Assembly (NCBI GenBank): GCA_965198225.1
Contig: CBDAOY010000007.1
Location: 990,045 to 1,054,044, forward strand
Direction of reading: 5' to 3'
Length of the DNA: 64,000 nucleotides
Source of the DNA: Terriglobia bacterium
GTDB lineage: Bacteria; Acidobacteriota; Terriglobia; 20CM-2-55-15
In this document: piece after piece, positions 25,689 through 63,557 of the stretch
Numbering within the stretch: position 1 is the stretch's first letter
Layout: the number at the start of each line of letters is the position of its first letter
Translations under genes and position numbers: made by a program
The notes under the pieces: generated by a model
The model's database searches: none
Seen by the model: the letters and a program-made list of their open reading frames with translations, nothing else
What the model was told of the DNA's origin: nothing

Positions 25689-25760
25689 CACGCTGCCGGC
25701 TGCCTTGATCGAAAGCGTGCTGCGTGATAGTTTTCATCCCGTACGTTACGGAGAATTCCC

Positions 25761-34683: not shown

Positions 34684-34704
34684 CCCAGACCGCTGCGGAG
34701 CATC

Positions 34705-34979
34705 CTAGTGACCTGTAACAGTGCTATCGGTACCAGCGTTCGGCGGAACGGCGTCGGATTCTAGGAGTGACGCTCGAGCCAATGCTGTTTCATTGCGAGG
34801 GCGTTGCGACACCGAAGACGGCGCCGTTCCGCCGAACCCTTCGGGCCGATGGGGGTTGCGGGCGATCTCTTTGTCGGAAGCCGTCACCGATGAAAGAGCA
34901 TCGCTTTCCGTCTCCCTCCTCGACCTCGCCCGCAAGACCCATCGGCGATGGTGCCGATAGCACTGCTACAGGCCACTAG
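34705..34979. mobile_element. MITE copy 2 (267 bp), same orientation as copy 1, CTAG target duplications
   Basis: ~98% identical to 25418-25684 (4-5 substitutions); CTAG on both flanks. Confidence 0.75.
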
Positions 34980-42623: not shown

Positions 42624-45077
42624 TCAGCAGCACTCGCCGGGTTCGCAACACTCAACGCTGGACAGCGCCGCGTCAGCATCCTTGGCCATCACCAGGAAAG
42701 ATCCCGCGTAAGGCTCTCGCGACAGTTTCGCAGCGGTATCGGTGCACACCTGGACGGGTTCGTTTCGGGGAAAGAGGTGGCCTTCCTCGTCGACGACCGC
42801 CTTCAGCGGGCCCAGATAGACGGCGCGCTGGCCTTCGAAGTTGCACACTCCGTTCTTCCCGAACTTGAAGCCCTGGATGATCAGCGAGTAGAAACGGTAG
42901 CCTTCGATCTCTTTCCAGAAGGTTTTCTCGACGAGCGACAGGCCGTAGAAACCCACCTGCTCGAGCATGGCGAAGTATTCATCTTCGGTCAGTGCTCCCG
43001 AGACGCACTCTCCCCACAGCCGGGGGTTGGCTTTCATGTGGTGGGGAATCTTCGATTCGGACACCGTGTCGGAGATGATCGCGCGGCCGTGATTCTTCAG
43101 AACCCGCCACATCTGCGAAAGTACGCGGCGTTTATCGGGCGAAAGGTTGATCACGCAGTTGGACGTCACGATATCGGCCTTCTGATCCTCCAGCGGAAGC
43201 TGTTCGAGGTATCCGCGCCGGAATTCGACGACGTCGTACCCGAGGGATTCGGCGACGATGCCCCGATTCCGTTCGGCCCGCTCGATCATTTCCGTCGTCA
43301 TGTCGATGCCGATCACACGACCGCTGGACCCGACGCGCTGTGCCGCGATAAAGCAGTCGATACCGCCTCCCGAACCGAGATCGACGTATGTTTCGCCCGG
43401 CTTGATGTCGGCGAACCGAATCGGGCTGCCGCAGCCGTAGGACACCTCGACGACTTCCTTCGGCAGTGCCCGAAGCTCGGCGGGGTCGTAGGCGGTCGGA
43501 CAGCACAGCGCTTCCTGAGGCTCGACGGCCGCCTGGGCGTAGAACTGGCGGACTTTCTCACGCGATCGTTCCAAGTCGACGGAGAGGACGCACGTGGAAC
43601 GGGATGTGGCGATCTCGAACCCCTCCGCTTCAATGGTTTCCATCTCAGAAAGCGATTCACCCATCGCGGCCACGACGGTCGGGGAATCGTATCCGGATGG
43701 GCCCTCATGGCTCTTGTTCTCAGAGGCGATCTGCTCGATCGCTCGGAGCAGCAGCCATTCGTGAACCTTCGAAAACGGGTCTTTTCCAAGGACGGTGCCG
43801 GAGTAGAAGAATGAATGTTCGACGTCACCGCCGCCGCACACGTAGCGCAGGTAGCATTCCTGACAGTCTTCTTTCGCGATGACGCTGGCTCGGCGCAGCG
43901 CGCGCGCGCGCGCGGATGTTTTCCAGATTTCCGCCAGCGGCTGTTCCTCGACGTTGCCCATAAGCAGTTCGGGGACACCGGCCAGCGCCGCGGAAGGATA
44001 GACGGTGCCGTCCGCGTAGACGCAGCAGCTGCTCGTGGCCGCGACCGACAGGTCCATCTTGACCCCGCGTCGGCCCTGAGCCCTTTCCCGGGCGACCTCG
44101 TAGTTGTCGAGCTCGATTCCCTTCGAAGATGCGTTTTCCAGGTATCGTTCCAGCATCTCGATGATGTCGGCGGTGAACGGACTCTGCATCTGGTCGTCTT
44201 CCAGAGCCCTGCCCTGTTTGTGGTCCCACAGCAGGTGATGACGCCGGACGCCGAGTTTGTCCAGGAACTCCGGGAATCGAGGAAGCGTGTCGAGGTTCGA
44301 GCGAGTCACGACAGTGGACACGGTCGGTTCAAACGCGGCGTCCAGCAGGGCGCCGATGCCTTCGACGGTTCGCTCGAACCCGGATCCGCGGATCGCGTGG
44401 TGGGTCTCGCGGTCGGGTCCGTCGATGCTGACCTGTAGGGCCACGTTGCCGTTCGCGGCGGCTTTGAGATTGGCCAGGGTATCGCCCCGGAAGAACATGG
44501 CGTTGGTCAGGATGACGAGTTCGCTGTCGGTGCAGATGGCCCGAACGATGTCGATCAGGTCGCGCCGTAAGAACGGCTCTCCACCGGTGATGTAAAATTG
44601 CCGAACACCCATCTGTTTCGCGTCGTCGACGATCTTCAGCCATCGATCAGTTGGAAGTCCCTCGATCCCTTTCGGGGAAGAATCCACGAGGCAGTGGGCG
44701 CAAGTCAGGTTGCAGCGGTTCGTCAGGTGCAGCCACATCTCTTGCGGCTCGTGGCGCTCGATCAACGCCCCGCGACCCGGATAGGTCGGGTGCTGGAACG
44801 GCTCGCTTCTCAGGAAGTCGGTCCGCAGTGCATGGTTGAGCAGCGTGCTGACGTCGAGCCAGGCTTCGGCCCAGTCCTTGCCCGCGTGGGACCGGTAGCG
44901 GCCCACAAGGTCCGAGACCCTCCGCTGTCCGTCGATCCAGCCGAGTATTTCGACGCCCGCTCGGTTCGTCACGATCCAGTTTGGCGCCTCGGGGTCGAAC
45001 ATCAGTCCGAATTCTCCGATCAGCCGCTCTTCGTAACGTGGGGGCGCGTGAAGTACCTGTTCAGGCAAGATAGTCAT
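42624..45077 (-). CDS. Three-domain fusion: PqqD/RRE-like N-term + radical SAM/SPASM (ArsS-like) + ArsM/AS3MT-type arsenite SAM-methyltransferase
   Basis: 817 aa; CNLTCAHC radical SAM cluster; SPASM Cys motifs; YGCGSP, VDLGSGGGIDCF, SNCVINLSPDK, LWGECVSGAL, C-terminal CCEPGECC. Confidence 0.8.
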   Translation of the reverse strand: MTILPEQVLHAPPRYEERLIGEFGLMFDPEAPNWIVTNRAGVEILGWIDGQRRVSDLVGRYRSHAGKDWAEAWLDVSTLLNHALRTDFLRSEPFQHPTYPGRGALIERHEPQEMWLHLTNRCNLTCAHCLVDSSPKGIEGLPTDRWLKIVDDAKQMGVRQFYITGGEPFLRRDLIDIVRAICTDSELVILTNAMFFRGDTLANLKAAANGNVALQVSIDGPDRETHHAIRGSGFERTVEGIGALLDAAFEPTVSTVVTRSNLDTLPRFPEFLDKLGVRRHHLLWDHKQGRALEDDQMQSPFTADIIEMLERYLENASSKGIELDNYEVARERAQGRRGVKMDLSVAATSSCCVYADGTVYPSAALAGVPELLMGNVEEQPLAEIWKTSARARALRRASVIAKEDCQECYLRYVCGGGDVEHSFFYSGTVLGKDPFSKVHEWLLLRAIEQIASENKSHEGPSGYDSPTVVAAMGESLSEMETIEAEGFEIATSRSTCVLSVDLERSREKVRQFYAQAAVEPQEALCCPTAYDPAELRALPKEVVEVSYGCGSPIRFADIKPGETYVDLGSGGGIDCFIAAQRVGSSGRVIGIDMTTEMIERAERNRGIVAESLGYDVVEFRRGYLEQLPLEDQKADIVTSNCVINLSPDKRRVLSQMWRVLKNHGRAIISDTVSESKIPHHMKANPRLWGECVSGALTEDEYFAMLEQVGFYGLSLVEKTFWKEIEGYRFYSLIIQGFKFGKNGVCNFEGQRAVYLGPLKAVVDEEGHLFPRNEPVQVCTDTAAKLSREPYAGSFLVMAKDADAALSSVECCEPGECC

Positions 45078-45254: not shown

Positions 45255-45915
45255 TTATCCCGGGCGTCGACGCATCTCTTCCCGGGTGATGAATCCATCA
45301 TCGTCCGCGTCGAGGCGGTCGAAGGCCTCAGTCGGTCGGGTCCACTCGTCACGAGAAACCTTGCCGTCGCCGTCTTCATCCATCTGGAGCATCGCGGCTC
45401 CCCGGCCACGTCCGCCTCTGCCCGGGCGGGAGTTCTGCATCTCTTCGAGAGTGATGAAGCCGTCGCCATCGGCGTCCATGGTCTCGAACATCTGCGCGGG
45501 ACCCGGAAACTCCTGCTGCGACACGCGTCCATCGCCATCGCTGTCGAGCCCCTGGAAACGGGCTTGAGGGTCTGCGCCTCTTCCGCCTCTATCCCGGGCG
45601 TCGCCATCTCTTCCCGAATCCATCATCGTCCGCGTCGAGGCGGTCGAAGGCCTCAGTCGGTCGGGTCCACTCGTCACGAGAAACCTTGCCGTCGCCGTCT
45701 TCATCCATCTGGAGCATCGCGGCTCCCCGGCCACGTCCGCCTCTGCCCGGGCGGGAGTTCTGCATCTCTTCGAGAGTGATGAAGCCGTCGCCATCGGCGT
45801 CCATGGTCTCGAACATCTGCGCGGGACCCGGAAACTCCTGCTGCGACACGCGTCCATCGCCATCGCTGTCGAGCCCCTGGAAACGGGCTTGAGGGTCTGC
45901 GCCTCTTCCGCCTCT
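45255..45915. repeat. Tandem duplication (334 bp + ~327 bp, near-identical) of the 3' end (including stop) of the EF-hand selenoprotein gene; upstream copy carries 7-nt + 2-nt deletions
   Basis: 45255-45588 vs 45589-45915 align almost perfectly; both end CCCGGGATA(A/G). Confidence 0.8.
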
Positions 45916-46746
45916 GCCGCGGCCGCCCCCGAATTGCCGCTGGATTTCGTCACGAGCGAGGAGACCATCATCGTTTCGATCGAGCCGGTCGAACGTCTCG
46001 CCGTCGCCCGTCCACTCTTCCCGTGAGATTGTACCGTCCTCGTTCGTGTCCATGACGCCCATACCGCCCGCAGTCCCGGGCCTCTGCCCCGGCCGAGGGC
46101 GCATACCACGCATGCCGCGGCCGCGACGCTGTCCCTGTTCCTGTCCGTAGGCGGTGATCTCCCCTCTGAGAGCGACCTCGAGCGCTGCCCTGGCTTCGGG
46201 GACATCGAACCCGGCCGGCCCGGGGCGTCCCTTGAAGGCGATGGTGCCGTCGGAGCCCACGACATAGATCCGGTCGGGAAACGCGGCGTACGCATTCGCC
46301 GTCCGGTCGTCGATCTTGTCCAGAATGGTCGGCATCGAGATGTCCAAGGCGGTCGTACAGATGTTGGCTGCTTCCTGGCGCTGCTCGTCGGTTTTGGCTT
46401 GTTCGATCAGGATGCCGTCGATAACATTCGCCGCTCCGAGGTTGCCGTCGGTGGGATGCGCTTCTCGAATGTAGACGAAGAAGAAATTGGCGCGGTCCTT
46501 GTAAGCCTGGTACCAGTTTTCGATGTCCACGACATCGCGGCGGAACGGGCCTCAGGTATAGCTGGCGAAGATCAGCGCGGTCGGTCTGCCCGTCATCTCA
46601 GAAAGCGTAATCTTTTGCTTTCCGTCTTTTGTACTGAGCGTGAAATCAGGCGCCGTATCTCCAGGCGTGGGGCCGCCGCCTCGCCGCTGGGCCGTGGCAG
46701 GGCTCACCAGGACGAGGACCAATAACGCAGACGCGAATGTTCTCAT
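45589..46746 (-). CDS. Candidate selenoprotein: secreted deiodinase-like thioredoxin-fold domain (FASYT-U-GPF, VYIREAHPTDG) fused to six EF-hand Ca-binding motifs; in-frame TGA (Sec) at 46552-46554
   Basis: ORFs 46552..46788 and 45589..46530 are in the same frame separated only by TGA; hairpin CGATGTC-GTG-GACATCG 16 nt after TGA (bSECIS-like); GGAGGAG RBS before ATG 46746; deiodinase motif AHP.DG downstream. Confidence 0.6.
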
Positions 46747-47443: not shown

Positions 47444-47470
47444 GCCCCCATTTCCCTCTTTCGTTCTCAA
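47444..47470 (+). terminator. Intrinsic terminator GGGGGC-AGA-GCCCCC + T-rich tract
   Basis: Directly after DUF427 stop. Confidence 0.55.
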
Positions 47471-47539
47471 CTTATTTCTGTTTTGGGCAGCGTCCGACGA
47501 CGCTTCAAAACGATCTTGAGCTTGACAGAAAGCCACCCT

Positions 47540-47555
47540 ATGTAGAAATCTACAT
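47540..47555. promoter_or_regulatory. PadR-type operator ATGT-N8-ACAT (ATGTAGAAATCTACAT) overlapping padR promoter; TTGACA at ~47521
   Basis: Perfect 7-2-7 palindrome matching known PadR box spacing, 4 nt upstream of padR ATG. Confidence 0.5.
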
Positions 47556-47558
47556 TCG

Positions 47559-47864
47559 ATGCCTCGAAACTACATGACATATCCGTCCGGTCTGGTCCTG
47601 CAGGCAATCGCTTCGGGGCATCGGTATGGTTTCGATGTGATGGATGTGACGGGATTGCCGAGTGGTACGGTTTACCCGGCACTTCGGAAGCTGGAACGAG
47701 AGGGCTATGTCCGTTCCAGGTGGGAAGGCGAAGATGTGGCCCGCCAGGCAGGGCGTCCACCGCGGCGTTACTACGAGGTTAGCGGCCCTGGCTCGGCGGC
47801 CTTGACCCAGCTGCTGAAACGGTTTCCAGGACTGGCCCGGGCCCTTGCCGCGGAGGTCTTGTGA
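47559..47864 (+). CDS. PadR-family transcriptional regulator
   Basis: 101 aa; wHTH PadR signature Y.....G...YP.L..LE..G. Confidence 0.85.
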   Translation: MPRNYMTYPSGLVLQAIASGHRYGFDVMDVTGLPSGTVYPALRKLEREGYVRSRWEGEDVARQAGRPPRRYYEVSGPGSAALTQLLKRFPGLARALAAEVL

Positions 47865-48475
47865 GGTGGGCAGGCGGCGAGCGGTCTCTCCGCGTCTGCC
47901 TGTTGTGGATTCGCGCTCTGTCGTTCCTCGTCCCGCCCCCGGGCCGGGACGAATGGATGCGGGAGTGGCGTGGCGAGCTTCTGCATCACTGGAGTGAGTT
48001 CGAGACAGGAGTTCAAAAGTCCCGTGCTGCAAGATTCGATTTGTTCCTACATTCGATGGGCGCCTTGCCTGATGCACTGTGTCTGCTGCGTCAGGAGTGG
48101 AGACTGGACATGCTGATGCAGGATCTGACCTATGCGGTACGGACGCTCGGCGCTCGACCGGGCTTCACCTTCGTAGTGATTTTCATTCTGGCGCTGGGTA
48201 TCGGGGCCAACACCGTCGTGTTCAGCGTCGTCGATGCCGTCCTGTTTCGACCCCTACCGTTTCCCGAGCCGGAGAGGCTGGTTGCGATCTGGGACGAAAA
48301 CACCCAAAAGTCGATGCTTCGTCAGGGTCCGGCGCCCGGCAATCTGCTGGACTGGCGTGACCAGTCACGGGTGTTCGATGGTATCGGAGCCTGGTACGCG
48401 GGCGAGCCCAGGACTGTGCGCGACGAGTCCAGTGCGGAGAAAGTGTCCGCCACTATAGGATTTTATTATGTCTAA
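47861..48475 (+). pseudogene. ADOP/MacB-like FtsX permease, N-terminal 204 aa only, truncated by insertion of integrative element
   Basis: Permease-prefix domain then first TM (FTFVVIFILALGIGANTVVFSV) and start of periplasmic domain; reading frame runs into AT-rich foreign DNA at ~48457 and stops. Confidence 0.7.
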
Positions 48476-48516
48476 TAATATCCATAAGTCTTATTTATAT
48501 CAACAGTATATCGTCC

Positions 48517-48544
48517 TAGACAATCCAGCGCCGTCTGGTATAAT
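48517..48544 (+). promoter_or_regulatory. Integrase promoter: -35 TAGACA, 16-bp spacer, extended -10 TGgTATAAT
   Basis: Canonical spacing, ~70 bp upstream of int ATG. Confidence 0.5.
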
Positions 48545-48613
48545 CCAAGCCTGTTGGGGGATATATTGGGGGAGTGCTGGAGTGCCTCTGCCCCATCGGT
48601 CGAGGGCTCTGCA

Positions 48614-49792
48614 ATGGCCATTCACAAACTCTCCCAACGCAAGGTAGACACCGCCGGTCCCGGCAAATACGAAGACGGCGGCGGGCTCCGCTTGGTGGTG
48701 TCCAATTCAGGCGCCAGGAGATGGGTCCTGCGTTACACCGTCCACGGCAAACGCCGGGAAATGGGTCTGGGCCGTTATCCCGATGTCGGGTTGGCCGATG
48801 CCCGCACGCAAGCGCTACGGCACCGGAGGCAGTTGGCGACGGGCGTAGATCCCATCGCAGCCCGCCGGGCGGCCCCGGAGACGCTACCCACCTTCACCAT
48901 CTGCGCCGCCCGGTATATCCGGGCCCATCGACGGAGTTGGCACAATGCCAAGCACGCGCGGCAATGGGTCCGGAGCCTGAAGACCTATGCCCGGCCCGTC
49001 ATCGGGGCCAAACGGGTCGACGCCATTGAGACTGAAGACATTGTAAAGATACTCTCTTCGATCTGGAACACCAAGACCGAAACGGCCAAGCGCGTGCAGG
49101 GGCGCATCGAAAATGTCCTGGACTTCGCCGCCGCGCACCAATACTGCGGTCCCCTGAACCCGGCCCGCTGGCGGGGCCATCTGGACAAGTTGCTCCCGAA
49201 GCCCTCCCGGGTGAAGCAAGTCACCCACCACCCGGCCATGCCGTATCCCGAGGTGGCGGACTTCCTGCAGGAGCTGTCCGGACACCGGAGTGTATCGGCG
49301 CAGGCGCTGCGGTTTTTGATCCTGACCGCCACGCGCACCAGTGAAGTCTTAGAGGCGCAGTGGCCGGAAATCGATCGGACCGCCGGTATATGGATCCTTC
49401 CCGCCTCCCGGATGAAAGCCCGACGGGAACATCGAGTTCCCTTATCGGATGCGACCCTGGCGGTTCTGGAAGACCTACCCCGCATGGCAGGCCACCCGTA
49501 TGTCTTCGCCGGATCTCGCCACGGACGCCCTCTGTCGAACATGGCCCTACTGAAATTGATGCGAGACATGGGATATTGCGTTGAGGGTTCCCGGGCTCAC
49601 TACGTGCCGCATGGATTTCGCTCCAGTTTTCGGGATTGGTCCGGCGAGGTGTCGAGCTTCCCGCGAGAAGTTGCGGAAATGGCCTTGGCCCACGTGGTGG
49701 AGAACAAGGTGGAAGCGGCCTACCGGCGGGGGGATCTGTTCGCCAAACGGCGCAGCATGATGCAGGCCTGGGCCGACTACCTCAAGAAGTAG
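48614..49792 (+). CDS. int: Tyrosine integrase, P4-type (DUF4102 arm-binding N-domain + catalytic domain)
   Basis: MAIHKLSQRKVDTAGPGKYEDGGGLRLVV...; catalytic R..H..R..Y region (HGFRSSFRDW, conserved Y near C-term). Confidence 0.9.
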   Translation: MAIHKLSQRKVDTAGPGKYEDGGGLRLVVSNSGARRWVLRYTVHGKRREMGLGRYPDVGLADARTQALRHRRQLATGVDPIAARRAAPETLPTFTICAARYIRAHRRSWHNAKHARQWVRSLKTYARPVIGAKRVDAIETEDIVKILSSIWNTKTETAKRVQGRIENVLDFAAAHQYCGPLNPARWRGHLDKLLPKPSRVKQVTHHPAMPYPEVADFLQELSGHRSVSAQALRFLILTATRTSEVLEAQWPEIDRTAGIWILPASRMKARREHRVPLSDATLAVLEDLPRMAGHPYVFAGSRHGRPLSNMALLKLMRDMGYCVEGSRAHYVPHGFRSSFRDWSGEVSSFPREVAEMALAHVVENKVEAAYRRGDLFAKRRSMMQAWADYLKK

Positions 49793-50066
49793 AAGGGCGG
49801 GTGCGCAAGGTCGACGGGCGGCCAACAATTCATGCATTCCGATGATTCCTTGAAGGAGCCCACTGCTTCCGAGGTGTGAAAGAATTCAGGCTGGTGCGGA
49901 TTCGACGCGGAAGTGGTCGGCGGAGTGAAAGGAGATGCGACAGAATCTGAGGATCTACGATTCCCGACCGAACCCCAGTGGGGCTAGTGTAGGCCGTCAC
50001 CAAAGGGCACCGCGGACTCGGTCGATGTGACTTTGATCAGGGAAAATCATGGACGGAACGGGTCCC

Positions 50067-50708
50067 TCAATGGATCGTCGGCTTCTCCACGCCGATGGTG
50101 GACAGTGCGTGTTGGCGGGCTCGCGTGCAGGCAACCACAACGGCATGAAGCTCTTTCTCCGCGATCCGTGAGAGTTCCCGCACGTTCTTGAGGCTCCGCG
50201 CCAGATCCATCTCCGAGCGCGACGATGTTCTCTCCAGACACTCCACCATGCTGTGCATCATGGCGTTGATCTCCCCGAGATTGTCCATGGCTTCGTGAGC
50301 CCGTTCGGGGAGATCCAGCACCTCCTCGGCACCGAACAGGCCGTCGATGAAACCTTCCAGCTCTTCCATGCGGGTGCGGCAGAGGCGACTCAGATCATCG
50401 AGCTCCGCCTTGGCGGCCATCGGTGTCAAACGGAACGGCCGGGTTCCCGATTGATGCTTTGCCAATTCGTTCCAGAGGCCCATGAGAGCCTCAAACAGCT
50501 CGTTGGCGGCAGCGACATCGTCAAACTTCGGCAGTTCTCCTCCCCAGAAAGCTGCTACGGTCGGGAGGGGCGACGCATCAAGATTGGGACTGGCGATGTT
50601 GCCGAGGAAGCGTGTGCGCACGACATGGAATGGAGTCGGACAGGCATAACCGTCCAATAGCCCGCGGACTCGTTCGTCGCCCTGATATCTGTGGGAACGT
50701 TTCTTCAT
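50067..50708 (-). CDS. Hypothetical protein (213 aa)
   Basis: ORF with reasonable composition; no recognised domain. Confidence 0.45.
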   Translation of the reverse strand: MKKRSHRYQGDERVRGLLDGYACPTPFHVVRTRFLGNIASPNLDASPLPTVAAFWGGELPKFDDVAAANELFEALMGLWNELAKHQSGTRPFRLTPMAAKAELDDLSRLCRTRMEELEGFIDGLFGAEEVLDLPERAHEAMDNLGEINAMMHSMVECLERTSSRSEMDLARSLKNVRELSRIAEKELHAVVVACTRARQHALSTIGVEKPTIH

Positions 50709-50795
50709 GCCCGATTAACTTCCGGCCGGCGTTGTGCCATTTCACCTTGTCCCTGCGGAAGCAGATTAGTCCGAAGAAGTTCGAGAATTTCCCGT

Positions 50796-51380
50796 TTACG
50801 TCCCACAGTTCTGGTAGTCCGAGGCCATACACGTGCGCGCCCACTCAATGGCGCGGCTGATCTGGGCACGGGTCATTTCACGTTCAAGGTTGCCCCGCGA
50901 CTCCTCGGGCCCAACGCCGGCGACGCTGACCCTCCCATTGGCGCTGGCGATATTGAACCACATGTGCGCGAGCACGTCGTCCTCGATGCCGCCCAAGCCG
51001 TTGTAGTACATCAACCCGAGGTTGAACTGCGCGCTCGCGTGCCCCTGCTCGGCCGCCATGCGGTACCATCGCGCCGCTTCCGCATCGTCTTCGATGACAC
51101 CCTCGCCGTGGGCATACATGGTTCCGAGATTGAATTGCGCACGCGCGTCCCCCTGCTCGGCCGCTATGCGGAACCACCGCATTGCTTCACGGTCATCCTC
51201 CATGGCGGCCTCGTCATCGTCGTAGGTGCTCCCGAGGCTGTCCGGCGTATCCGCGTTCCCCTGCTCGTCTTCGGCCTGAAAGCGTCCTGGTTCGTCCTGC
51301 GCCGGAACACATGCCGCGGCCAGCAGCCAGGAGCCGCAGAGCAGTGTCATCGCGATCCATCGGTTACGGTGTTTCTTCAC
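50796..51380 (-). CDS. Sel1-repeat (TPR-like) secreted protein
   Basis: Signal peptide; repeated A.AQFNLG.MY..G.GV..D...A..W motifs. Confidence 0.8.
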   Translation of the reverse strand: MKKHRNRWIAMTLLCGSWLLAAACVPAQDEPGRFQAEDEQGNADTPDSLGSTYDDDEAAMEDDREAMRWFRIAAEQGDARAQFNLGTMYAHGEGVIEDDAEAARWYRMAAEQGHASAQFNLGLMYYNGLGGIEDDVLAHMWFNIASANGRVSVAGVGPEESRGNLEREMTRAQISRAIEWARTCMASDYQNCGT

Positions 51381-51620
51381 GGCAGCCTCCCATGTCCTGG
51401 TGATCTTATGCCTTGAGACTGGATCGTCGATTGTAGGCGATCCAGGACGCGACCCTACAAGTACTTGGCGACTCTAGTGTAATGGGATCCGCAGGTTACG
51501 TTGCGTGCCGAACACGGATCACCGCTGGAGTGTGGACACAGCGGAAGGTTCACCGTGCCGACGGACGGGTAAGCCAGCCACCTTGAGCAGGATCATCTTG
51601 GGACGCCATCGGCGGCACAC

Positions 51621-51951
51621 CTAACGTCGGCGGCCGCAGGACACGAATATCTCCACGTCGGCCCTCAGCGCGCGCTCCGTGTTGTGGCTGAAGGCACCCC
51701 GGGCCGCTTTGAAGTAGGCGGCCAGTTGGTCCCCTGCCTCCGCAGCGTATTCAACACGGAACGAGAGCGTTCTCGAGCGGGTTGGTCTGCCCGATCGCCT
51801 TGTGCAGCGTGGCGATGCTGGAGACGTAGCGGCGCACCGTCGCCGGGGCCTTGACGCGCGCCATGTCGTCGATGAAGGCGACCAGGGTGGGGGCGTTGGC
51901 GGGCAACGCCGGCACGACCTGCTGCCGGCAGCCAGGATCTCCATCTCGCAT
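51621..51951 (-). pseudogene. Tyrosine recombinase N-terminal (SAM-like core-binding) fragments, frameshifted remnant
   Basis: VAFIDDMARVKAPATVRRYVSSIATLH in one frame and FSHNTERALRADVEIFVSCG in the other; no catalytic domain. Confidence 0.45.
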
Positions 51952-52008
51952 GTCATCTCTGAAATCAGCATCGGGCGGCCTCCGGTTCAGTCGAAAAAGG
52001 CCGCGAAT

Positions 52009-52042
52009 TTTACTCGCGATAATTCCAGTTATCGCGAGTAAA
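52009..52042. promoter_or_regulatory. Perfect 14-6-14 palindrome TTTACTCGCGATAA-TTCCAG-TTATCGCGAGTAAA (recombinase core-site-like)
   Basis: Perfect arms, 6-bp spacer, ~60 bp from the recombinase fragment. Confidence 0.5.
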
Positions 52043-52611
52043 GCCCCGAGATAACGCTTTCCTCGCCGTTGATCACACGGCGCGGCGGATTTTTTTCGAT
52101 CCGGCGCCTGCTGCCCATCAGCTCAGGGGGGGCGGGACGCAACGAGGTCTGTCTACCGAACGGGGGAGTTGTGGTGCCTTCTACGGCCCGAATGAGCGCG
52201 ACCAGATATCGCCAGCGAACCGGAGAAAGGGACATCGACTTGGCAGAACACCGTGAAATCGCGGCGTCACGCGTCACAGGGATAGACACGAAAGCGGTGG
52301 CGAAGGACTGAGGTGGCCGTATCGATACGGTCGTGGCGGCGCGCTCACCCGCAGCCGTGGCTGCGCCGATGATTTGTCCATGGGGCGATCCGCCGCGTGA
52401 CCGCAAGCCGCTGGCGATGAGTGCCTGCCCGGTTCACGGAAATCGGGCTATGGGCTCTGCCGTGCAGCGCCGCCCGCCTGTTCCGTGCCGAGCCCGTTGG
52501 CAGGACATGAGCAGTTTCGCCGCCGATACCGTCGATCAACGTGCGACCGTCATCACCGGTCCCCGGGTGTCGGTCCGCGGACGTCAATTCACAAGGGCGA
52601 CGCGCTACCGC

Positions 52612-55600
52612 ATGCGCGTGCTCTCTTTTTCGCTGCAAGGCCTTAAAACCGGGTTATTTCTGCTATTCGCATCACTGCTGGCCGTGTCGGCGCCGATTCA
52701 GGCCAGCGCGCAGGCGAACAGCCCTCCGGCGGTGACGGGGCCAACCAGCGTCGACTACGCCGAGAACAGCGAGGAGACGGTGGCCACGTATATCGCTACG
52801 GACCCGGAGGCCGAAGCAATCGCGTGGAGCGTGTCCGGGACGGACCATGCGCTGTTTTCCATCACTGCGGGTGTCCTGGAGTTCCTGAGCCCGCCGAACT
52901 ACGAGAGGCCTATCGACGAGGGCGAAGACAACGCGTATGAGGTGGGCGTCACGGCCACGGATTCCTCCGGGGCGGCCGCCACCGTTGCGGTCACCGTGAC
53001 GGTAACAGACGTCAACGACCCGAACATCGTCCTCATCATGGCGGACGATGTCGGTTATGAGGCCTTTGGGGCATACGGTAGCGCACAGTACAGAACGCCG
53101 CGAATTGATGAGCTTGCAGCCGCGGGAGTTCGCTTCACGAACGCTTACTCAAACCCGGTATGCACCCCGAGCAGAGTTGCCTTGATGACGGGTAAGAGCA
53201 GTGTCAGGAACTATGTGGATTTCGGAGTTCTACTCCCCGGAGAATACACGATTACTGATCTCTTTAGTGGGGCCGGATACGCAACGGCCATCGCCGGAAA
53301 GTGGCAGCTTCACGGTAGTGTCGTAGGTAGTGACGTAGTGGCTGGTGTCCCTGCCGGAACCGGATTCGACACGTATTCCTTGTGGAATACAGCCAACACG
53401 GGTCGTAGTCGCTACTGGAATCCTTCCATCGAACGCGACGGTGAAATCATCGATCTGGGCAGCGAGGATTACGGGCCCGACATATTCACGAATTTCCTGC
53501 TGGAATTCATAGAGTCCAACAGAGATAAACCGTTTTTCGCCTACTACCCGATGGTGCTTCCTCATGATCCGTTCGGCTCGCCGCCGCAAGCCCAATGCGT
53601 CGATACCGCTGACGGACAGTGCAATTTCGAGGACATGGTCGCGTATCTCGATTACAACGTCGGCCGCATACGCGACAAGCTGGCGGACCTGGAGCTACTC
53701 GACAACACAATCCTCATATTCACCTCCGACAACGGAACTCACGCACGCTGATCTGATTTCAGAACTCGGGGGAGAAATGATCCATGGGGATAAGAACATG
53801 CCCAACAATGGCGGCACGCGGGTACCGCTGATAGTCAGCGTTCCAGGAGGTGAGGGGGGACGGGTGTTCGACGACCTGATCGACTTCACCGACTTTCTCC
53901 CGACTCTGGCTGATGCGGCAGGTCTTACGATTCCTGACGTCAATATGCTGGACGGCGTGAGTTTTTGGGACAGGCTTCAAGGCCGAACCGGCCAACCGCG
54001 GGAATGGATATATACCTATTACTTCCCACGTCCGTTCGCCGATAGGTTCGACAATCCGCAACGTCATCCAGAGGCGTCGTATGTCCGAGACAAGCGGTAC
54101 CAGCTCTACGGAACAGGAGAGTTCTTCGACATTTCCGTAGACCCTCACCAAGTGCATCCGTTGCCGAGTGACGATGAAGAGTCCAGCGCCGCCCGTACCA
54201 AGCTGCAAGCGGTTCTCGACTCGATGCCGGGGAGAGGTGAGGAGATTTACCCATATTTGATAGGAACTGTCCCGGACTCTGAGCCGCGCCCGCGATGGCG
54301 GCCCGTCCTGTCGAAAGCAACTGTGAACGGCGGCCAATTGACGCTCACTTACGCCGGAATTCTGGACTCAAGAGAAGCGCCTCCCGCAGATTCCTTCATT
54401 GTGAACGTTGATGGTTCCGAGCGTGCGGTCTCCACAGTTTCGATAAGCAAAACAGCGGTTACGCTTACACTCGCTTCGGCGGTTACAGTTGGCCAGACGG
54501 TGACGTTGAATTACACGCCGGGAACGAATGCGATTCAGCACGCGAACAGGCCATTCGGGCACAAAGCGGCACCCCTGGTTCGCCAAGGGGTGACGAACAA
54601 CACTGTGGACACGACGGCGCCGGCGGTGTTGTCGATCACGAGCGACGCGACGCACCCGACGAAGAACGCTTTCACGGTGACGATAACCTTTTCGGAGGAG
54701 GTGAGGGGACTCACGGCGGGGGAGATCGCGGTCACCAATGGCACGGGCTCGAACTTTGCGGGCACAGGCGCGAGCTACATGCTCGACATCGAACCCAGCG
54801 ACGATATCGAAGCCGACGTGACGGTCCGGGTTCCGGCCGATGCGGCGATGGACGCCGCGAACCTCGGCAACATCGAGGGGATCGAGACCTTCGCGGTGGA
54901 CACCCAGGCGCCGGCGGTGTTGTCGATCACGAGCGACGCGACACACCCGACGAAGGATGCTTTCAGGGTGACGATCACCTTTTCGGAGGCGGTGACGGAG
55001 CTCACGTCGCAGGATATCGCGGTCATGAACGGAGTGGGCTCGAACTTCGCGGGCACGGACGCGCGCTACACGCTCGACATCGAGCCCAGCGCCAATACCG
55101 AAGACGATGTGACGGTCCGGGTTCGGGCCAACGCGGCGGTGGACGGCGTGAACATCGGCAACGTCGAGGGGATCGAAACCTTTGCGGTGGACACCCAGGT
55201 GCCGAGGGTGTTGTCGATCACAAGCGACGCGGCGCACCCGACGAAGGATACTTTCACGGTAACGATCACCTTTTCGGAAGAGGTGACGGGGCTGACGGCG
55301 AGTGAGATCGTGGTCAGCAATGGCCGTGGCTCGAACTTCGCGGGCACGGGCGCACGCTACACGCTCGACATCGCTCCGAACGCCAACCTTGAAGCCGATG
55401 TGACGGTCCGGGTTCGAGCCAACGCGGCGGTGGACGGCGCGAACAACAGCCACGTCGACGAGGGCGAGACCTTCGCTGTGGACACGCGGGCACCGGTGTT
55501 GATGAGCGCTGCGGTGGATGGCGACACGCTGACGCTGAGCTATGGGGAGGCGCTGGGCAACCCGACACCGGAGCCGGGCGATTTCACGATGAATGTGGAG

Positions 55601-58600
55601 AGCGCTGGGCGGAGCGTTTCCAGGGTGGCGGTGAGCGGAAGAGCGGTGACTTTGACGCTTGCCTCGGCCGTGGCGCATGGCGAGACGGTGAGAGTGAGCT
55701 ACAGCCCGGGGACGAACCCGATCCAGGACGCGGTGGGCAACCAGGCTCTGGGACTGAGCAACGCGTCGGCCACCAACACTACGGATGCACCCAACACGGA
55801 TCCGATGATCACGAGTCCGGGGCCGTTCAATGTCACTGAGAATCAAGCGCGGGTGACCCGGCTGATGGCGGCCGACGCCGACCCGGGGGACGAGGTCACC
55901 GGCTATACGCTTGTCGGCGGAGCCGATCGGGCCCAGTTCACGGTCGGTGAGGATACCGGAGATCTGGGCTTCCGGGCGGTTCCGAACTTTGAAGCGCCCA
56001 CGGATGCCTTCAGTAACGATCCGCCAAGTGGGGCAGGAGACAACGAGTACATCGTGGTGGTCCAGGTCAGCAGCGGGGCAGGAACGCGGGTGCGGACGGC
56101 GGAACAGACGATTCGCGTGCGGGTGAGTGACGTGGAGGAGCTTCCAGCGGCGCCGGAGGAGCCGACTTTTCCGAGGGCGACGCCGGACAGCCTGACGGTG
56201 GCGTGGACGGAGCCGGACAACACCGGGCCGCCCATCACCGGCTATGACGTGCAATACCGGGAAGGCGTCAGCGGCGGCTTCACGGATGCGCCGCACTCCG
56301 GGACGGCCCAAACCACAACGCTCATGGGGTTGAGCGAGGGCACGGCCTACCAGGTGCAGGTGCGGGCGAGGAACGCGGAAGGAACAGGTGACTGGTCGGA
56401 GCCGGGCGAAGGACGGACCGTGGCCCCGCTGAGGGTTCGGATGACGCCGGAGCTGGAGCCGCCGGTGGAGGGCCCGTTCTCGGTGAGGTTCAGCTTTTCG
56501 GAGACGGTGACGGGTTTCAGCGGAAGCGACATCGAGACGGGTCAGGACCTTGCCTGCATGGACGATCAGAACAACCCGGTGTTCTGCAACCCCGGCTTTG
56601 CGGCATTCGAGACCACGGATAGCCGGGTCTTCACCACCCGCGTGACCCCGAGGACCGGCGGGGTGGCCAATAACTACAAGCTCACGCTCACGGTGCGTGC
56701 CGGCGGAGTGAGATCGTCTGTCGGCAATAAGCCTAACGAGGAGGCGACGCTTGAGGTGCCGGTGGCGCCGCCGGGGGTGACGGTGCCGATCGGGCCGCTG
56801 GGGCTGACGGCGAGCGGGGGAAACGGCCAGGTGGCGCTCCGGTGGAATGCCCCGGGGGACACCGGGGGCGCCGCGATGGTCCGCTACGAATACCGGGTGG
56901 CGGATGGCGTCGGCGGGGAGTTCGGCGCCTGGATGCGGGTGGATGCGGCGGCGAGGTCCGCGCCGGTCCCCGATCTGACGAACGGCCGGGAATACGTCTT
57001 CGAGCTGAGGGGGGTGAACGCCCTGGGCTACGGCGGGGTGGAGACCGTGCGAGCCACCCCGGTGCGCACCACCACCGGGGACGGAGGAGGCAGAGGAGGC
57101 GGCGGGGGTGGGGGCGCCCTCCGCGGGACAGTGCCGGGCGCGCCGACGAACCTGACGGCTGAGGGCGGGGACGGCCAGGTCGTACTGAGTTGGGACGCCC
57201 CGGAAAGCGACGGCGGGGCGGCGATCACCGATTACGAGTATTGGAACGGCGGGAGTCGGACCTGGACCTCCATCGGTTCCACGAACACCACCCATACGGT
57301 CACCGGCCTCGACAACGGAACGGAATACACCTTCCAGGTGCGGGCGGTCAACCGAAGGGGCCGGAGCCGGGCTTCCAACCGGGCTACGGCGACGCCGGAC
57401 GTGTTTATCCTGGACTTTGCGCATTTCGCCAATGGCGCGTCCATTACCTCCGATCTGGTGCTGGTGAACCCGGGAAGCATCCCGATCCGGCCCGTCGTTT
57501 ATTTCTACGACACCGGGGGCAATCCAATTAACGCCGAATCGGTGGTGGACGTCACCGGTGATCTGACGGTCGCCGAGGACGGTGCCTTGACGGTCCTGGC
57601 GGATATGGAGCCACTCAGAGAACTCACGATTGCGACCCACGGTCGGGGAGCGCTCGTGAGTGGATCGGTGAAGGTTGTCTCTTACGGTCCTGTCGGCGGG
57701 TTCCTGCGCTATAACGTCCCGGATGTCGGCGTGGCCGGTGTGGGAGCGAGCCCGCCCACACGGGATGTCCTTTTCCCGGCCCGCCGCGAGGCGGGAGGCA
57801 TCAATACGGCGGCGGCGATCCAGAACCTGGGAGAGGCACCGCTGGAGGTGAGCTGCCGATTGATGCGCGCGGGCGCGGTGCTGGAAGAGGCGGAGATCGC
57901 TCTTGCGCCCAACGGGCAGTCGAGTGTCTTTATCGACGAACAATTCCCCGCCACCGATACGTCCGACTTCGCGGGGTCGATGCACTGCGACGCCCCAGCG
58001 ACGTTCACCGGTGTGGCGGTCGAGATGGATGCTGTCCACCGCATCTTTACGGCACTGCCGGTGGTTTCCGCGGATCGGCTCAGCGGCGGCAGTGCGACGG
58101 TCCTGGACTTTGCGCATTTCGCCAATGGAGGTTCCATCACCTCCGATCTGGTGTTCGTGAATCTGAAGACCCGTCCGAGCGGGCCCGCGCCCACTCCCTT
58201 TCAGATGGCCATCCCTCCGAGCCGCCCTGCCATCCATTTCTACGACACGGAGGGCAATCCGATGGCGACCGAATCGGTGGTGGACATCACCGGCGATCTG
58301 GAAGTCACCGAAGACGGCGCCCTGACGGTCCGGACGGAGATGGAGCCCTTGGGCGTGCTCACGATTTCGACTCACAGCCGGGGCGATCTGGTGACCGGAT
58401 CGGTGAAGGTGGTCTCGGAGGGTCCCATCGGCGGGATGCTCCGCTTTGACCTCCCCGGCATCGGCGAGGCCGTGGTGGGGGCCAGCGAGCCCCTCAGCGA
58501 CTTCCTCTTCCCGGTGCGCCGCCAGGAGGGAGGCATCAACACGGGGGTCGCGATCCACAACCTGGAATCGAGTCCGGAGTTGGTGCGCTGCGAACTGCTG

Positions 58601-58837
58601 CGCGAGGGCGTGCTGCTCGATACCGTGAGCATCCCTCTTGAGGCCAACGGGCAGACCTCCGGGTTCATCGACGGGCGATTCCCCAGCGTCGATACGTCCG
58701 ACTTCGTGGGGTTGGTACGCTGCAATGCAGTCGGTGAGGGGCTCTTCAGTGCCGTCGCCCTGGAACTGGATGCCGCCAACCGCATCTTTACCACACTGCC
58801 AGTGATCCCGCTGCAAGAGACGATGTCTCAGGAATAG
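52612..58837 (+). CDS. Giant secreted multidomain protein: signal peptide, cadherin-like, arylsulfatase (CTPSR FGly motif), SwmB repeat, 3x tandem Ig-like, cadherin-like, 3x Fn3, two ~230-aa C-terminal repeats; one frameshift near 53745
   Basis: Sulfatase frame ends FTSDNGTHAR* at 53751 while +1 frame continues ADLISELGGEMIHGDKNMPNNGGTRVPLIVSVPGG (sulfatase C-half) into the 1757-aa ORF 53564..58837. Confidence 0.65.
54605..55477 (+). repeat. Three tandem 291-bp coding repeats (97-aa Ig-like units VDTTAPAVLSITSDATHPTK..), high nucleotide identity
   Basis: GTGGAC register at 54605, 54896, 55187, 55478. Confidence 0.8.
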
Positions 58838-59125
58838 ACGGACGCGCCTGACAGGCTAGGCGACGGCGTCGCCATGAGCTTCGAACCGGGCGTCGACGCC
58901 CAACGCGGGAGAGCCCGAGTCAGGGGGGCACGGACCACGGCATGCCTGGACGGTTCACGGCGCGCCGGCGGTAGACATCCGATCCGTGGACACCGTGGGC
59001 CGGGGGCGCCCCCGGATGCATACCGGAGGCCGGCGGGGGTCCATCATGCCTGGGATGACTGTGATGTCGATGTTGCCGTGCTCGGTCGCGTGCCTCGTCG
59101 CAGCCGGCATCCGCGGTGTTGCGGA

Positions 59126-59803
59126 ATGGCTCCACGCGTTGAGGCTCGACGACAGCTCGCGCTGGCTGGGCCCATCCTCCGAAAACCTCTGCTATCCGTA
59201 TCGCGAAAGGCGCTGGCCTCCGGCGAGCCGGAAGATCCCCCCGGCTGGGAACGGATCTATGAAGGCTCGTTCCTGGAAGCAGCGCTGGTCACACAGCTTT
59301 CCGGCGACTTTCCCGGCCCGGTGCTGGCCGTGGTTTCGGTGCCCTTTTACTCGGCAGACCGGCAGCGGATTTTAGTCCCGCGAGGGGCGCGAGTCGTGGG
59401 CACGGCTCAGGCCGTGGCGAATCAGGACCAATCGCGCCTTGCCGTCAGTTTCCACCGTTTGATCTATCCGGACGGGCGTTGGGTGTCGCTGGAATTCAAC
59501 GGCCTCAATCAGGTCGGCGAGGGAGCCTTGAAAGATCAGGTCAACCGCCATTACCTATCCACGTTCGCCGCAGTCGGCGCGGTCGGCATCCTGAGCGGGC
59601 TGACCTTGCGCGGCTCCAATCCCTATGGCGGCGGGCAGCAGAGCCTTCAGGCTGGGGCCGGACAAGGGCTCGGCCAGGCCGCGACGCGCATCCTGGATCG
59701 TTTCCTGAATCGTTTGCCCACCCTCACCATTCGGGCCGGGCATCGGCTTCGCGTTTGGTTCACTTCCGACGTGCTGGTTCCCCGGCCCCAACAAGGAGAT
59801 TGA
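59126..59803 (+). pseudogene. trbI: TrbI/VirB10 C-terminal domain fragment (5'-truncated, no TM/Pro-rich region)
   Basis: FLEAALVTQLSGDFPGPVLAVVSVPFYS...ILVPRGARVVG...RLAVSFHRLIYPDGRWVSL matches VirB10 C-domain; upstream frame is Arg-rich noise. Confidence 0.5.
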
Positions 59804-59804
59804 A

Positions 59805-60722
59805 ATGAAAATGTACCGAAAAGCCTTCACCGTTGTTGTCATGGTTCCGATCCTCATCATGCTCACCACCACGCCCGCGCATGCCCTCTTCGGCTCGATC
59901 CTTGCGGGCATCCAACGCGCCCAGATGATCGCCAATCAGGGGATCCAGATCTACAAGGACACAATGGCGAAGATCACCCTGGACGGCCAATTGACCCAGA
60001 TGACGGATCAGTTCAACCACCTGCAAGAACAGGCGCTCGGAAGTGTCGGGGCGCTCACCGATCCGTTTACGCAGTTGGCTTCGGTGCCGACGCAGTTCAT
60101 CGGCGTGGGTCTCGCGTGGAAGAACGATTTTACCGGCGTTGCCGCGGAGCTTGTCTCGTCGGTGGAACAGATGGGCGAAACCGGCACGAGCTTTACCGAG
60201 TCGTGGCGTGATCGGCTCACCGCCGCCGACACGGTGACTGAGAGCGACATCATTGGTCTGTACAACTCTCAGCGGCCCGAAATGGCCCAGAGAGCGGCAC
60301 GGGGCTACCTTGCGGCGCGAGAGGAAGGCGAGAAACGCCTGGTCCTCGATCACGCCACGAGCGATGCGGCGGCGAATCTCATGATTGCGGCGCGTGAGGC
60401 TGTGGCCTCCTACGAAGGACTGCGAAACAACACCAATACTTCCAACACCGCGCTCGCTCAATCGCAGGTGGCCGGGACCCTGACCCAGGGGAACCTCACC
60501 GCGGCCATGGCGCAGTTGATGGCGTTCGATACAGCAAAGGCGGCAGCGGAAGATTACGAACGCGAGATCGCCCGGCGCGACGCGCTGGCGGAATGGGTCG
60601 AGGCCCAGCGCCGCGCGCGCGTCACCTTCGACGCGCAACAGGCCGGGCTCGATGCCCGGCGCGATGCGATGCGGGAAGGGTTGCTCTTCCAGATTCATCC
60701 GTTCTATCGCGGCGGGAACTAA
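59805..60722 (+). CDS. trbJ: Conjugal transfer protein TrbJ (VirB5-like)
   Basis: 305 aa; signal peptide, coiled-coil; operon with trbL. Confidence 0.75.
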   Translation: MKMYRKAFTVVVMVPILIMLTTTPAHALFGSILAGIQRAQMIANQGIQIYKDTMAKITLDGQLTQMTDQFNHLQEQALGSVGALTDPFTQLASVPTQFIGVGLAWKNDFTGVAAELVSSVEQMGETGTSFTESWRDRLTAADTVTESDIIGLYNSQRPEMAQRAARGYLAAREEGEKRLVLDHATSDAAANLMIAAREAVASYEGLRNNTNTSNTALAQSQVAGTLTQGNLTAAMAQLMAFDTAKAAAEDYEREIARRDALAEWVEAQRRARVTFDAQQAGLDARRDAMREGLLFQIHPFYRGGN

Positions 60723-60734
60723 CCCGGTACGCCG

Positions 60735-61736
60735 ATGCAAATCCAACTCGACCCGGCGATCCCGGCCCAGGTCCCCCCGGAGCAGCTTCGGGATTTCAAG
60801 TCGTTTCTCGATACCGTTCTCGAGGGAATCATCGGCCCGGCGGCCAACCCTCTGCTGGAGACCGGAAACCTGCTGTGGACAGGGTTAGCCGCAATCGTGG
60901 TGGTGTTGACCGGCGCGAAGATCGCGTACAGCGGGAACATTCAGCCGTGGGACATCGTCCGGCTCGTCATCGGTCTGTGGGTGCCGTGGGTCATGTTGCA
61001 GTTCTACTCGACGCCCATCCCGGGGCTGGTCTTCACGTTCCCGGGGGTCATCACGGCGGGCGGGAATTGGTTGCACAATTTCTTGCTTGCGGACACGGCC
61101 TGGTCCATGCATAGCGAACTCGGAAACCTCGTCACCAACCTCGCGGAGGATCTTCAGGTGCAAGCGAATCAGGGGAGTATTCTCGGCGTGCTCACCGGCG
61201 GCGCTCACGCCGTGCTGACGCTCGTTGCCGGAGCCGTCATCATGCTGTTCGTCGTGACCTGTCTCGTCGTTTTGTTCGCGGTTACCTACGCTCAGGTGAT
61301 CTGGGCCCAGATCGCCCTGGCGATCCTCACGCTCCTGGGTCCGATCTTCATTCCCTGGCTGGTGTTTGAGCCGATGAGCTTCATGTTCTGGGGATGGTTC
61401 CGGGCGATGCTGACGTATTCGCTCTACGCCGTGATCGCCGGGGCCGTCATGCGCGTGTTTTCCGGCGTGGGCCTCGCCTACGTCACGACCCTGGGCACCG
61501 CCCAACTCAACTGGCAGTCCATTGGCGATCTCGGTTTGTGGCTCCTGGCGGTCCTGCCCCTGTTCGTGGCCGGGATCCTGTCATCGCTCAAGTGCGGGGA
61601 GCTCGCCTCGATGCTCGTCACCGGTGCCGGTGCATCGGGAAGCGGGCTCATGGGCATGGCGGGGATGGCGGGAACGGTTGCCACCGGCGCCAGCGTGCGC
61701 GCGGCCGCGAAAGCGGGGGCGGGAGGTCTGAAATGA
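60735..61736 (+). CDS. trbL: Conjugal transfer protein TrbL (VirB6-like)
   Basis: 333 aa; polytopic membrane protein with Gly/Ala-rich tail. Confidence 0.75.
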   Translation: MQIQLDPAIPAQVPPEQLRDFKSFLDTVLEGIIGPAANPLLETGNLLWTGLAAIVVVLTGAKIAYSGNIQPWDIVRLVIGLWVPWVMLQFYSTPIPGLVFTFPGVITAGGNWLHNFLLADTAWSMHSELGNLVTNLAEDLQVQANQGSILGVLTGGAHAVLTLVAGAVIMLFVVTCLVVLFAVTYAQVIWAQIALAILTLLGPIFIPWLVFEPMSFMFWGWFRAMLTYSLYAVIAGAVMRVFSGVGLAYVTTLGTAQLNWQSIGDLGLWLLAVLPLFVAGILSSLKCGELASMLVTGAGASGSGLMGMAGMAGTVATGASVRAAAKAGAGGLK

Positions 61737-63345: not shown

Positions 63346-63388
63346 TGGGGTTCAAAAGCAATGGGAAATGTGGCAGGATTCGAGGGAT

Positions 63389-63475
63389 TTTTTCTTGCAA
63401 CACCTTCCGATCCAGGATGCAACACCCTCAGAGAGGGGGGTGTTGCAGGATTCGGACAAAAGGTGTTGCAATGCC
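63389..63475. repeat. Iteron-like array: TGCAACACC x2 direct then GGTGTTGCA x2 inverted at ~22-bp spacing (fifth copy at 63612)
   Basis: 9-mers at 63395, 63417, 63439, 63462. Confidence 0.5.
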
Positions 63476-63557
63476 ACATCCTCCTATCTCCTTAATTCTT
63501 TTTTGGTTATCCCATACCAATCGGCCTCCACCGTGCCGATCCAGCGAAATCGGGGAG

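Follow-up and report, generated by a model that had tools for sequence, protein, structure and literature searches.

In the 64,000-nucleotide stretch of contig CBDAOY010000007.1 analysed here (hereafter the window), a genomic island encoding a P4/CP4-type tyrosine integrase interrupts a PadR-linked gene for an ADOP-type permease. The insertion was precise, conservative and site-specific, as established by a repeat shared by the two junctions, an arm motif common to both ends of the island and a permease open reading frame (ORF) that is restored when its two halves are joined. Judging from the sequences, we consider it highly likely that the island split the gene at a pseudo- or secondary attachment (att) site that resembles the tRNA-Ser sites of related integrases, and that the island has since decayed. 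The data are low-coverage long-read metagenome assemblies with some frameshifts.

The split permease gene and its junctions

The interrupted gene is the second of a PadR-ADOP pair. The first, encoding a PadR-family regulator (47,559-47,864, plus strand), matches Pfam PadR with an E-value of 6.3e-10 and TIGR03433 (padR_acidobact) with only 36 bits, under the cut-off; its stop codon overlaps the permease start (GTGA). The PadR-then-permease order recurs in the related locus L003, and a PadR frame 5′ of the permease of locus L006 is implied by nucleotide homology. The truncated permease ORF (47,861-48,475, plus strand, 204 aa) comprises 198 native codons (47,861-48,454), six element-encoded codons (IGFYYV) and a TAA stop. 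Positions 1-111 of the 803 in TIGR03434, the NCBIfam model of ADOP, align to its residues 85-197 (E-value 4.6e-32, 111 bits), which marks the ORF as the predicted 5′ quarter of an ADOP-type duplicated FtsX/MacB permease of about 890 aa. An intact orthologue, P0122, reaches it by tblastn at residues 1-198 only, and homology to intact orthologues ends sharply at 48,453/48,454.

At this junction the G+C content falls from 0.68 (48,400-48,449) to 0.22 (48,450-48,499), in agreement with the original prediction, made from this DNA alone, of a 204-aa PadR-linked permease ORF that ends in AT-rich DNA. The AT-rich part is limited to an att arm of about 90 bp. In 1-kb windows the G+C content is 0.59-0.64 on either side of the junction and 0.56-0.68 deeper in the island, and there is thus no compositional break at the kilobase scale. 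The original prediction had held that the lack of such a break would speak against an insertion, but we regard composition as a weak criterion that is overridden by the att evidence.

Exact-protein and homology look-ups yielded three syntenic loci with an intact or near-intact permease in related uncultured genomes (L003, L005 and L006). Their left flanks share with the window a VTT-domain gene, a radical-SAM/methyltransferase fusion, a deiodinase/EF-hand gene, two small ORFs and a DUF427 gene, and to the right of the permease they carry a gene of 117-119 aa, an M14 peptidase and an AMP-binding enzyme. Nucleotide homology to L005 (91%), L006 (82%) and L003 (74%) stops at window position 48,450-48,453, and none of the three right flanks has any homologous DNA in the window.

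The other half of the permease was found through the 90%-identity cluster of the L005 permease, which includes 698-aa members, one of them on a contig that also carries the window's integrase and 5′ fragment. There, at locus L008, the 698-aa ORF corresponds to permease residues 192-892 (the 3′ 695 codons), and the locus runs on into the expected right flank with 92% identity to L005. One contig of 2,784,501 bp (ERZ25069191 ctg587049) therefore bears the integrase, the 5′ fragment and the 3′ part of the permease. Joining window 47,861-48,453 to L008 10,012-12,097 at the repeat gives a single 892-codon ORF, which aligns without gaps to the 892-aa P0122 at 86% identity and covers TIGR03434 from position 1 to 803 of 803 with 906.8 bits, against a cut-off of 622.3.

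The repeat at both junctions is 19 bp long, CGGAGAAAGTGTCCGC[C/T]AC. Its attL copy, CGGAGAAAGTGTCCGCCAC, lies at 48,435-48,453 (plus strand), and its attR copy at L008 9,993-10,011 differs from it by a T at position 17; the unoccupied L005 locus has one copy, of the T variant. With a slash marking the junction, the left side reads CGGAGAAAGTGTCCGCCAC / TATAGGATTTTATTATG and the right side AACAATAACATATAT / CGGAGAAAGTGTCCGCTAC CCAGGTGAC. No other site in the window comes within three mismatches of the 19-mer (0.01 expected). No second att copy was found inside the window, where only 12-mer matches occur, at 2,491 and 14,554. At attL the repeat overlaps a dyad of GCGGA (48,434-48,438), a 7-bp spacer GAAAGTG (48,439-48,445) and TCCGC (48,446-48,450). 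The lone mismatch between attL and attR falls in the right arm, outside the spacer, as would be expected if strands are exchanged in the spacer, and we infer that the spacer is the crossover region.

On the element side of attL lies the P′ arm (48,454-48,613, plus strand), AT-rich from 48,454 to about 48,545 with a G+C content of 0.22. It carries a predicted sigma-70 promoter, TAGACA-16-TATAAT (48,517-48,544, plus strand; -35 at 48,517-48,522, TG at 48,536-48,537, -10 at 48,539-48,544), which scores 11/12 and is the top site of the 6 kb scanned; the near-consensus promoter described earlier thus holds. Downstream are paired putative arm-type repeats TTGGGGGA (48,554-48,561 and 48,566-48,573, plus strand) and a GAGGG (48,602-48,606, plus strand) before the integrase ATG. 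The spaced pair GGGGGA-N6-GGGGGA occurs once in the 64-kb window, in the attL arm (0.02 expected), and once in the 22-kb L008 locus, in the attR arm (0.00 expected); the element-side flank is AT-rich at both ends. A layout of -10 TATAATC and paired TTGGGGGA is kept upstream of the integrase relatives L010 and L099 (68-72% identity). The pair probably represents arm-type binding sites of the integrase, and because it lies between the -10 element and the start codon, the integrase may repress its own promoter.

We considered whether the junction could instead be a transposon or insertion sequence (IS) insertion, a breakpoint of illegitimate recombination or an assembly chimera, for which the IS-rich region and the frameshift-prone assemblies give some room. 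However, the left junction is seen in the window and in L001 and L002, the right one in L008 and in three more contigs from other samples (L009, L090 and L091), integrase relatives have matching core and arm motifs, and the ORF is restored exactly. We give an origin of this kind hardly any credence. A transposon was rejected in its own right: transposon target duplications are far shorter than 19 bp, and the ends show no terminal inverted repeats.

Together, the 3′ part, the 19-bp repeat, the unoccupied L005 site and the restored ORF support the earlier claim of an element inside an ADOP/FtsX permease gene. Two checks proposed with it were a search for the 3′ permease part elsewhere in the genome, which is present in L008 on the 2.78-Mb contig that also bears the 5′ part, and for a direct repeat of the att core at both ends, which exists over 19 bp with one mismatch. 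The other end of the element does lie outside the window, with attR 1.94 Mb from attL on ctg587049. The 3′ part was also expected downstream of the element; it exists on the same contig and strand, but at that distance it is not simply downstream.

The claim that the insertion is recent stands in part. Both permease halves are free of stops and frameshifts, and their ratios of nonsynonymous to synonymous substitution rates (dN/dS) against relatives are 0.14-0.20, compared with 0.07-0.18 for neighbouring genes. Clean frames and dN/dS values near those of the neighbours point to a disruption that is recent when set against the divergence of roughly 9% from the L005 lineage. The island itself has been heavily reworked since then: it holds many IS elements, has lost a part in some of the population and is dismembered.

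The same locus is damaged in the relatives. In L003, from a 6.35-Mb genome, a repeat of about 330 bp (L003 10,590-10,925) breaks into the permease eight codons downstream of the position of the island in the window. It resembles a miniature inverted-repeat transposable element (MITE), has CCGCAGAATTTGTGGG as its terminal inverted repeats and appears to have duplicated CAGATTTTT. A second, inverted copy of this repeat lies just past the gene (about 13,000-13,330), and the permease additionally holds an in-frame TAA. L005, the closest unoccupied relative (91% identity), has a deletion at 9,798-9,800 that removes PadR and the first ~85 permease codons (window-equivalent 47,457-48,114), and its permease is called from Met153. 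The PadR-ADOP locus has thus been broken independently in three related lineages, by the island in the window, in L003 by a MITE-like repeat plus a stop codon, and in L005 by loss of the 5′ part, which suggests that this ADOP paralogue, presumably one of many in ADOP-carrying genomes, is dispensable.

The integrase and its choice of target

The integrase gene (48,614-49,792, plus strand) is intact and encodes 392 aa. The product matches PF13356 Arm-DNA-bind_3 (formerly DUF4102; 84 bits), PF22022 Phage_int_M (95 bits) and PF00589 Phage_integrase (56 bits, model positions 20-166 of 172), all above the Pfam cut-offs, and in the Protein Data Bank (PDB) a CP4-like integrase N-terminal domain and a phage-integrase central domain. 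These matches agree with the P4-type integrase with a DUF4102 domain named in the original prediction. Read by eye in the translation, the catalytic R...K...HxxR...H...Y residues are present (ATRTSE, MKARREHRVPL, HGFRSSFRDW, LAHV and EAAYRR). The identical protein occurs in two other assemblies.

We gathered 160 loci of integrase relatives, 80 from genomes and 80 from metagenomes. In about 20 of them (38-68% identity), TGGCGGA-N7-TC[CT]GC lies 150-250 bp upstream of the integrase gene; its full form is the palindromic core TGGCGGA-N7-TCCGCCA. In five of these with enough sequence (L015, L016, L020, L025 and L027), the opposite strand carries a tRNA-Ser gene 5-9 kb downstream, whose 3′ end, in reverse complement, has a repeat of 14-17 bp in common with the core. 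Relatives below 40% identity show the classical layout with the tRNA directly upstream. Among the relatives, both tRNA-Ser and other tRNAs are used. The cores and tRNA-Ser repeats of the relatives suggest that the window integrase belongs to this tRNA-Ser-type group.

In the window, the target is the interior of the ADOP ORF and not the 3′ end of a tRNA or tmRNA gene that is typical of the integrase family. The permease sequence encoding AEKVSAT (codons 192-198) matches the palindromic core of the integrase group at 18 of 19 positions. A protein-coding target had been called atypical, and the target is indeed not a tRNA gene; it is best explained as mimicry of the tRNA-Ser-type core and not as a new class of target.

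We then propose a model for the history of the locus. The integrase would belong to a group whose core, TGGCGGA-N7-TCCGCCA, has the 3′ end of tRNA-Ser as its usual chromosomal partner. The AEKVSAT-encoding sequence would have been near enough to this core, at 18 of 19 positions, to act as a pseudo- or secondary site, so that an island encoding the integrase could enter codons 192-198 and split the ADOP gene. The crossover would have been site-specific, at a core in which a 5-bp inverted repeat encloses a spacer of 7 bp (GCGGA-GAAAGTG-TCCGC). Later decay would account for the IS elements, the recombinase fragment, the partial type IV secretion set, a 10.9-kb deletion and the ends that now lie 1.94 Mb apart.

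It is conceivable, though in our judgement rather unlikely, that the ADOP gene is instead the dedicated primary site, and that the integrase and its attP have evolved away from tRNA-Ser. In support, the inferred attP matches attB at 18 of 19 positions, with a match that extends over both arms and all of the spacer, and tyrosine integrases dedicated to the protein-coding genes guaA, radC and dusA exist (PMC8627217). The end of the sole tRNA gene in the window, tRNA-Ser(CGA) (3,161-3,248, minus strand; the one tRNA-Ser gene of the genome that was examined), is GCGGAGAGGGTG; it lacks the right arm, and its spacer GAGGGTG has two mismatches to GAAAGTG. On the other side, no ADOP fragment lies beside the integrase in any of the 160 relatives' loci, which fits a one-off pseudo-site, and dedicated intragenic sites usually lie at the end of a gene whose function is kept, while here the gene is cut at 22% of its length. 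A tRNA-Ser gene ending in CACTTTCTCCGCCA (spacer GAAAGTG), if present in the genome, would be the primary site of the element.

Several points weigh against the proposed history. The attP spacer of the element matches the permease exactly and tRNA-Ser(CGA) not, so that the permease could be the preferred site. No target was found for the closest relatives (66-78% identity), and the tRNA-Ser habit is extrapolated from relatives of 38-68% identity. The absence of ADOP among the relatives also means that the event has no independent replicate, no excised circle was seen for this population, and neither attP nor a same-strain attB contig was found among the members of the permease cluster. Pfam searches of the small and unassigned island ORFs revealed no excisionase. 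Finally, the 1.94-Mb gap between attL and attR is not explained by a single simple insertion, and the linkage of the two is given by one metagenomic contig.

The surroundings of the tRNA gene hold a further observation. A core-like sequence, GAGCGGAAGTGTCCGCCAA, lies at 2,484-2,502, 660 bp to the 3′ side of tRNA-Ser(CGA), in the order and orientation of core and tRNA-Ser in the integrase relatives, and the 11-mer AGTGTCCGCCA is found in the window only near this tRNA gene and at attL (0.02 expected). The motif may be what is left of a related island that occupied the canonical tRNA-Ser site, and it hints at the fate of that primary site. The 0.66-kb stretch beside the tRNA gene shows no similarity to the reconstructed attP or the island ends past a 12-mer, and the single ORF between motif and tRNA gene (162 aa) has no Pfam match.

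Insertions of a comparable kind are known. Tyrosine-integrase islands are documented at tRNA-Ser and in guaA, radC, dusA and trmE (PMC8627217, PMC8409611), among them tRNA-Ser-integrating integrative and conjugative elements (ICEs) and integrative and mobilizable elements in Mesorhizobium (PMC8627217, PMC5882170). Like the P4/CP4-57 islands at tRNA genes, including the tRNA-Ser elements of Mesorhizobium and other Proteobacteria, the window island has a three-domain integrase, an integrase gene beside one att site that reads inwards, AT-rich arms with repeated arm-type motifs, a short direct repeat at both ends and a similar palindromic core. Unlike them, it lies in the interior of a protein-coding gene that is destroyed and not regenerated, it is dismembered, and its host is an uncultured, ADOP-carrying and probably acidobacterial organism. 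Salmonella genomic island 1 takes a second chromosomal site when trmE is unavailable (PMC2297512). There too the integrase accepts a chromosomal sequence with no more than a resemblance to its usual core, whereas the primary site of the window element is inferred from relatives only.

Integrative elements that disrupt genes include the comK prophage of Listeria and the skin, nifD and fdxN elements. As in these, an element with a tyrosine or serine recombinase lies inside an ORF and precise excision, here in silico, restores the gene. In contrast to them, the window island shows no sign of regulated excision or of an excisionase, and its att sites are 1.94 Mb apart, so that a third of the chromosome would be lost or split off on excision.

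The case thus joins the known islands at tRNA-Ser and in protein genes and the known secondary sites, and a sequence-level rationale for the odd target appears clear. It would be a base-pair-resolved case of a tRNA-targeting integrase landing in a protein-coding gene through a 5-7-5 dyad that copies its core. The event is ordinary in kind and leaves the current understanding of integrases and islands unchanged.

Decay of the island and its separated ends

The left part of the island interior (49,793-64,000) has no homology to the unoccupied right flanks. Next to the integrase gene are a 213-aa gene and a Sel1-repeat gene (50,067-51,380, minus strand). A second tyrosine recombinase is represented by an N-terminal fragment in two overlapping frames (51,621-51,971, minus strand), probably a decayed gene; the frames, which contain NTERALRADVEIF and LPANAPTLVAFIDDMARVKAPATVRRYVSSIATLHKAIG, resemble an N-terminal SAM-like domain and have no Pfam match. 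A frameshifted sulfatase gene and a gene for a giant surface protein with Ig, fn3 and cadherin domains follow (52,333-58,837, plus strand). Their frames (52,333-53,751 and 53,564-58,837, the latter with SWM repeats, Big_12, fn3 and cadherin) overlap, and the near-identical contig L002 has an extra base near 53,235 and another pattern of breaks, which are either those of a real pseudogene or long-read indel errors. Type IV secretion is represented by remnants, TrbI/VirB10 (59,126-59,803), TrbL/VirB6 (60,735-61,736) and VirB8 (ending at 62,404). Beyond the window, the near-identical contig L092 continues with a 454-aa gene, two IS elements and a block of genes around cytochrome c5.

In total, about 30 kb of the element was read, and no relaxase, VirB4 or coupling protein was found in it. 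Pfam searches of the small and unassigned ORFs added no relaxase or further secretion parts. Measured as an ICE, the island shows in this part an incomplete conjugation module (VirB10, VirB6 and VirB8 only, besides unassigned ORFs) that gives way to IS elements, and it is not a contiguous unit between attL and attR. L001, the majority variant of one sample, is without 10.9 kb that include the surface protein and secretion genes. This deletion runs from inside the sulfatase gene (window 53,623 onwards; L001 15,011/15,012) to inside the 454-aa gene past the window, and the variant is also without a 2-kb IS; in the same sample the contig with the deletion has 18x coverage and the one without it 7x. 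At the right end, a fragment of an IS256-family transposase gene ends about 165 bp from the core, with more IS debris before it.

On ctg587049, the only contig with both junctions, attL (about 47,300) and attR (about 1,987,793) share a strand and are 1.94 Mb apart. The DNA beside both island ends is far better conserved between genomes than the chromosomal flanks: the L003 genome matches the proteins there at 90% identity or more and the flanks at 74%, and the nucleotide identity of the cytochrome c5 block is 92-97%. Therefore, some of the adjoining DNA may be mobile cargo.

The separation of the ends could be built in, with the island as one component of a multipartite element of the kind known from the tripartite ICEs of Mesorhizobium, whose att pairs are scattered over the chromosome and brought together by several integrases ahead of excision (PMC5882170). 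As in the tripartite ICEMcSym1271 (PMC5882170), attL and attR of one integrase lie megabases apart, and one order of recombination would split the chromosome. The location of both sites on one contig, the greater conservation of the end-adjoining DNA (92-97% for the cytochrome c5 block, 74% for the flanks) and the second recombinase gene fragment would fit such an element. However, that fragment is merely a frameshifted N-terminal piece, and the two further sets of integrase, att site and excisionase known from ICEMcSym1271 are not evident in the 30 kb, nor are further att pairs, a relaxase, VirB4 or a coupling protein. At the breakpoints there are IS elements instead, with fragments at most 165 bp from attR and IS copies bounding the left part, which points to IS-mediated rearrangement. 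Moreover, the att sites are in direct orientation, and recombination between them would cut the chromosome in two. We therefore regard a multipartite element as improbable.

It is similarly improbable that the 1.94-Mb att pair in direct orientation is a functional or semi-stable state and not debris. Such a state could be a multipartite element assembled by further recombinases, or an intact integrase able to split or re-join a third of the chromosome. If true, either would be without precedent outside Mesorhizobium; the host would be acidobacterium-like, and the origin would lie in the capture of a tRNA-Ser-type integrase at a pseudo-site within a gene.

IS-mediated rearrangement after integration is the most economical reading of the separated ends. 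The island is most likely immobilised and the permease inactivated. The locus records the movement of mobile elements, and the scrambling of a genome by IS elements, in an uncultured lineage that is rich in ADOP genes and probably belongs to Acidobacteriota.

The cytochrome c5 block covers about 20 kb (L094-L097; L001 16,791-21,179) and encodes cytochrome c5, a YjlB-like protein, a rhodanese/metallo-beta-lactamase protein, an FGE-sulfatase, DUF1501 and PSCyt2/PSD1 proteins. It is 99.9% identical between two contigs of different samples, keeps its gene positions in two more, and is 92-97% identical to the DNA of the window organism, whose flanks are only 74% identical to one such genome. Different IS elements border it in each contig, and the block looks like recently exchanged DNA. 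The idea that the SoxC/cytochrome c169 and cytochrome c5/YjlB genes, which flank the two ends of the island, form one block split by rearrangement was rejected as unsupported, as the c5 block has other left neighbours in four relatives.

Other features of the window

Upstream of the PadR gene, the window encodes an 817-aa fusion of radical-SAM/SPASM and methyltransferase domains (42,624-45,077, minus strand) with a cysteine-rich tail, CCEPGECC. The fusion is kept in all relatives beside the deiodinase-like EF-hand protein. Inside the gene for the latter, a tandem duplication of about 335 bp (45,255-45,925) has a different copy structure in L001.

A repeat of about 277 bp is present in two copies in the window (25,414-25,689 and 34,702-34,979) and in L005 at 76-348 and 2,484-2,762. 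The L005 copies are 83-98% identical to these, some in opposite orientation, and the repeat is probably a small non-autonomous mobile element.

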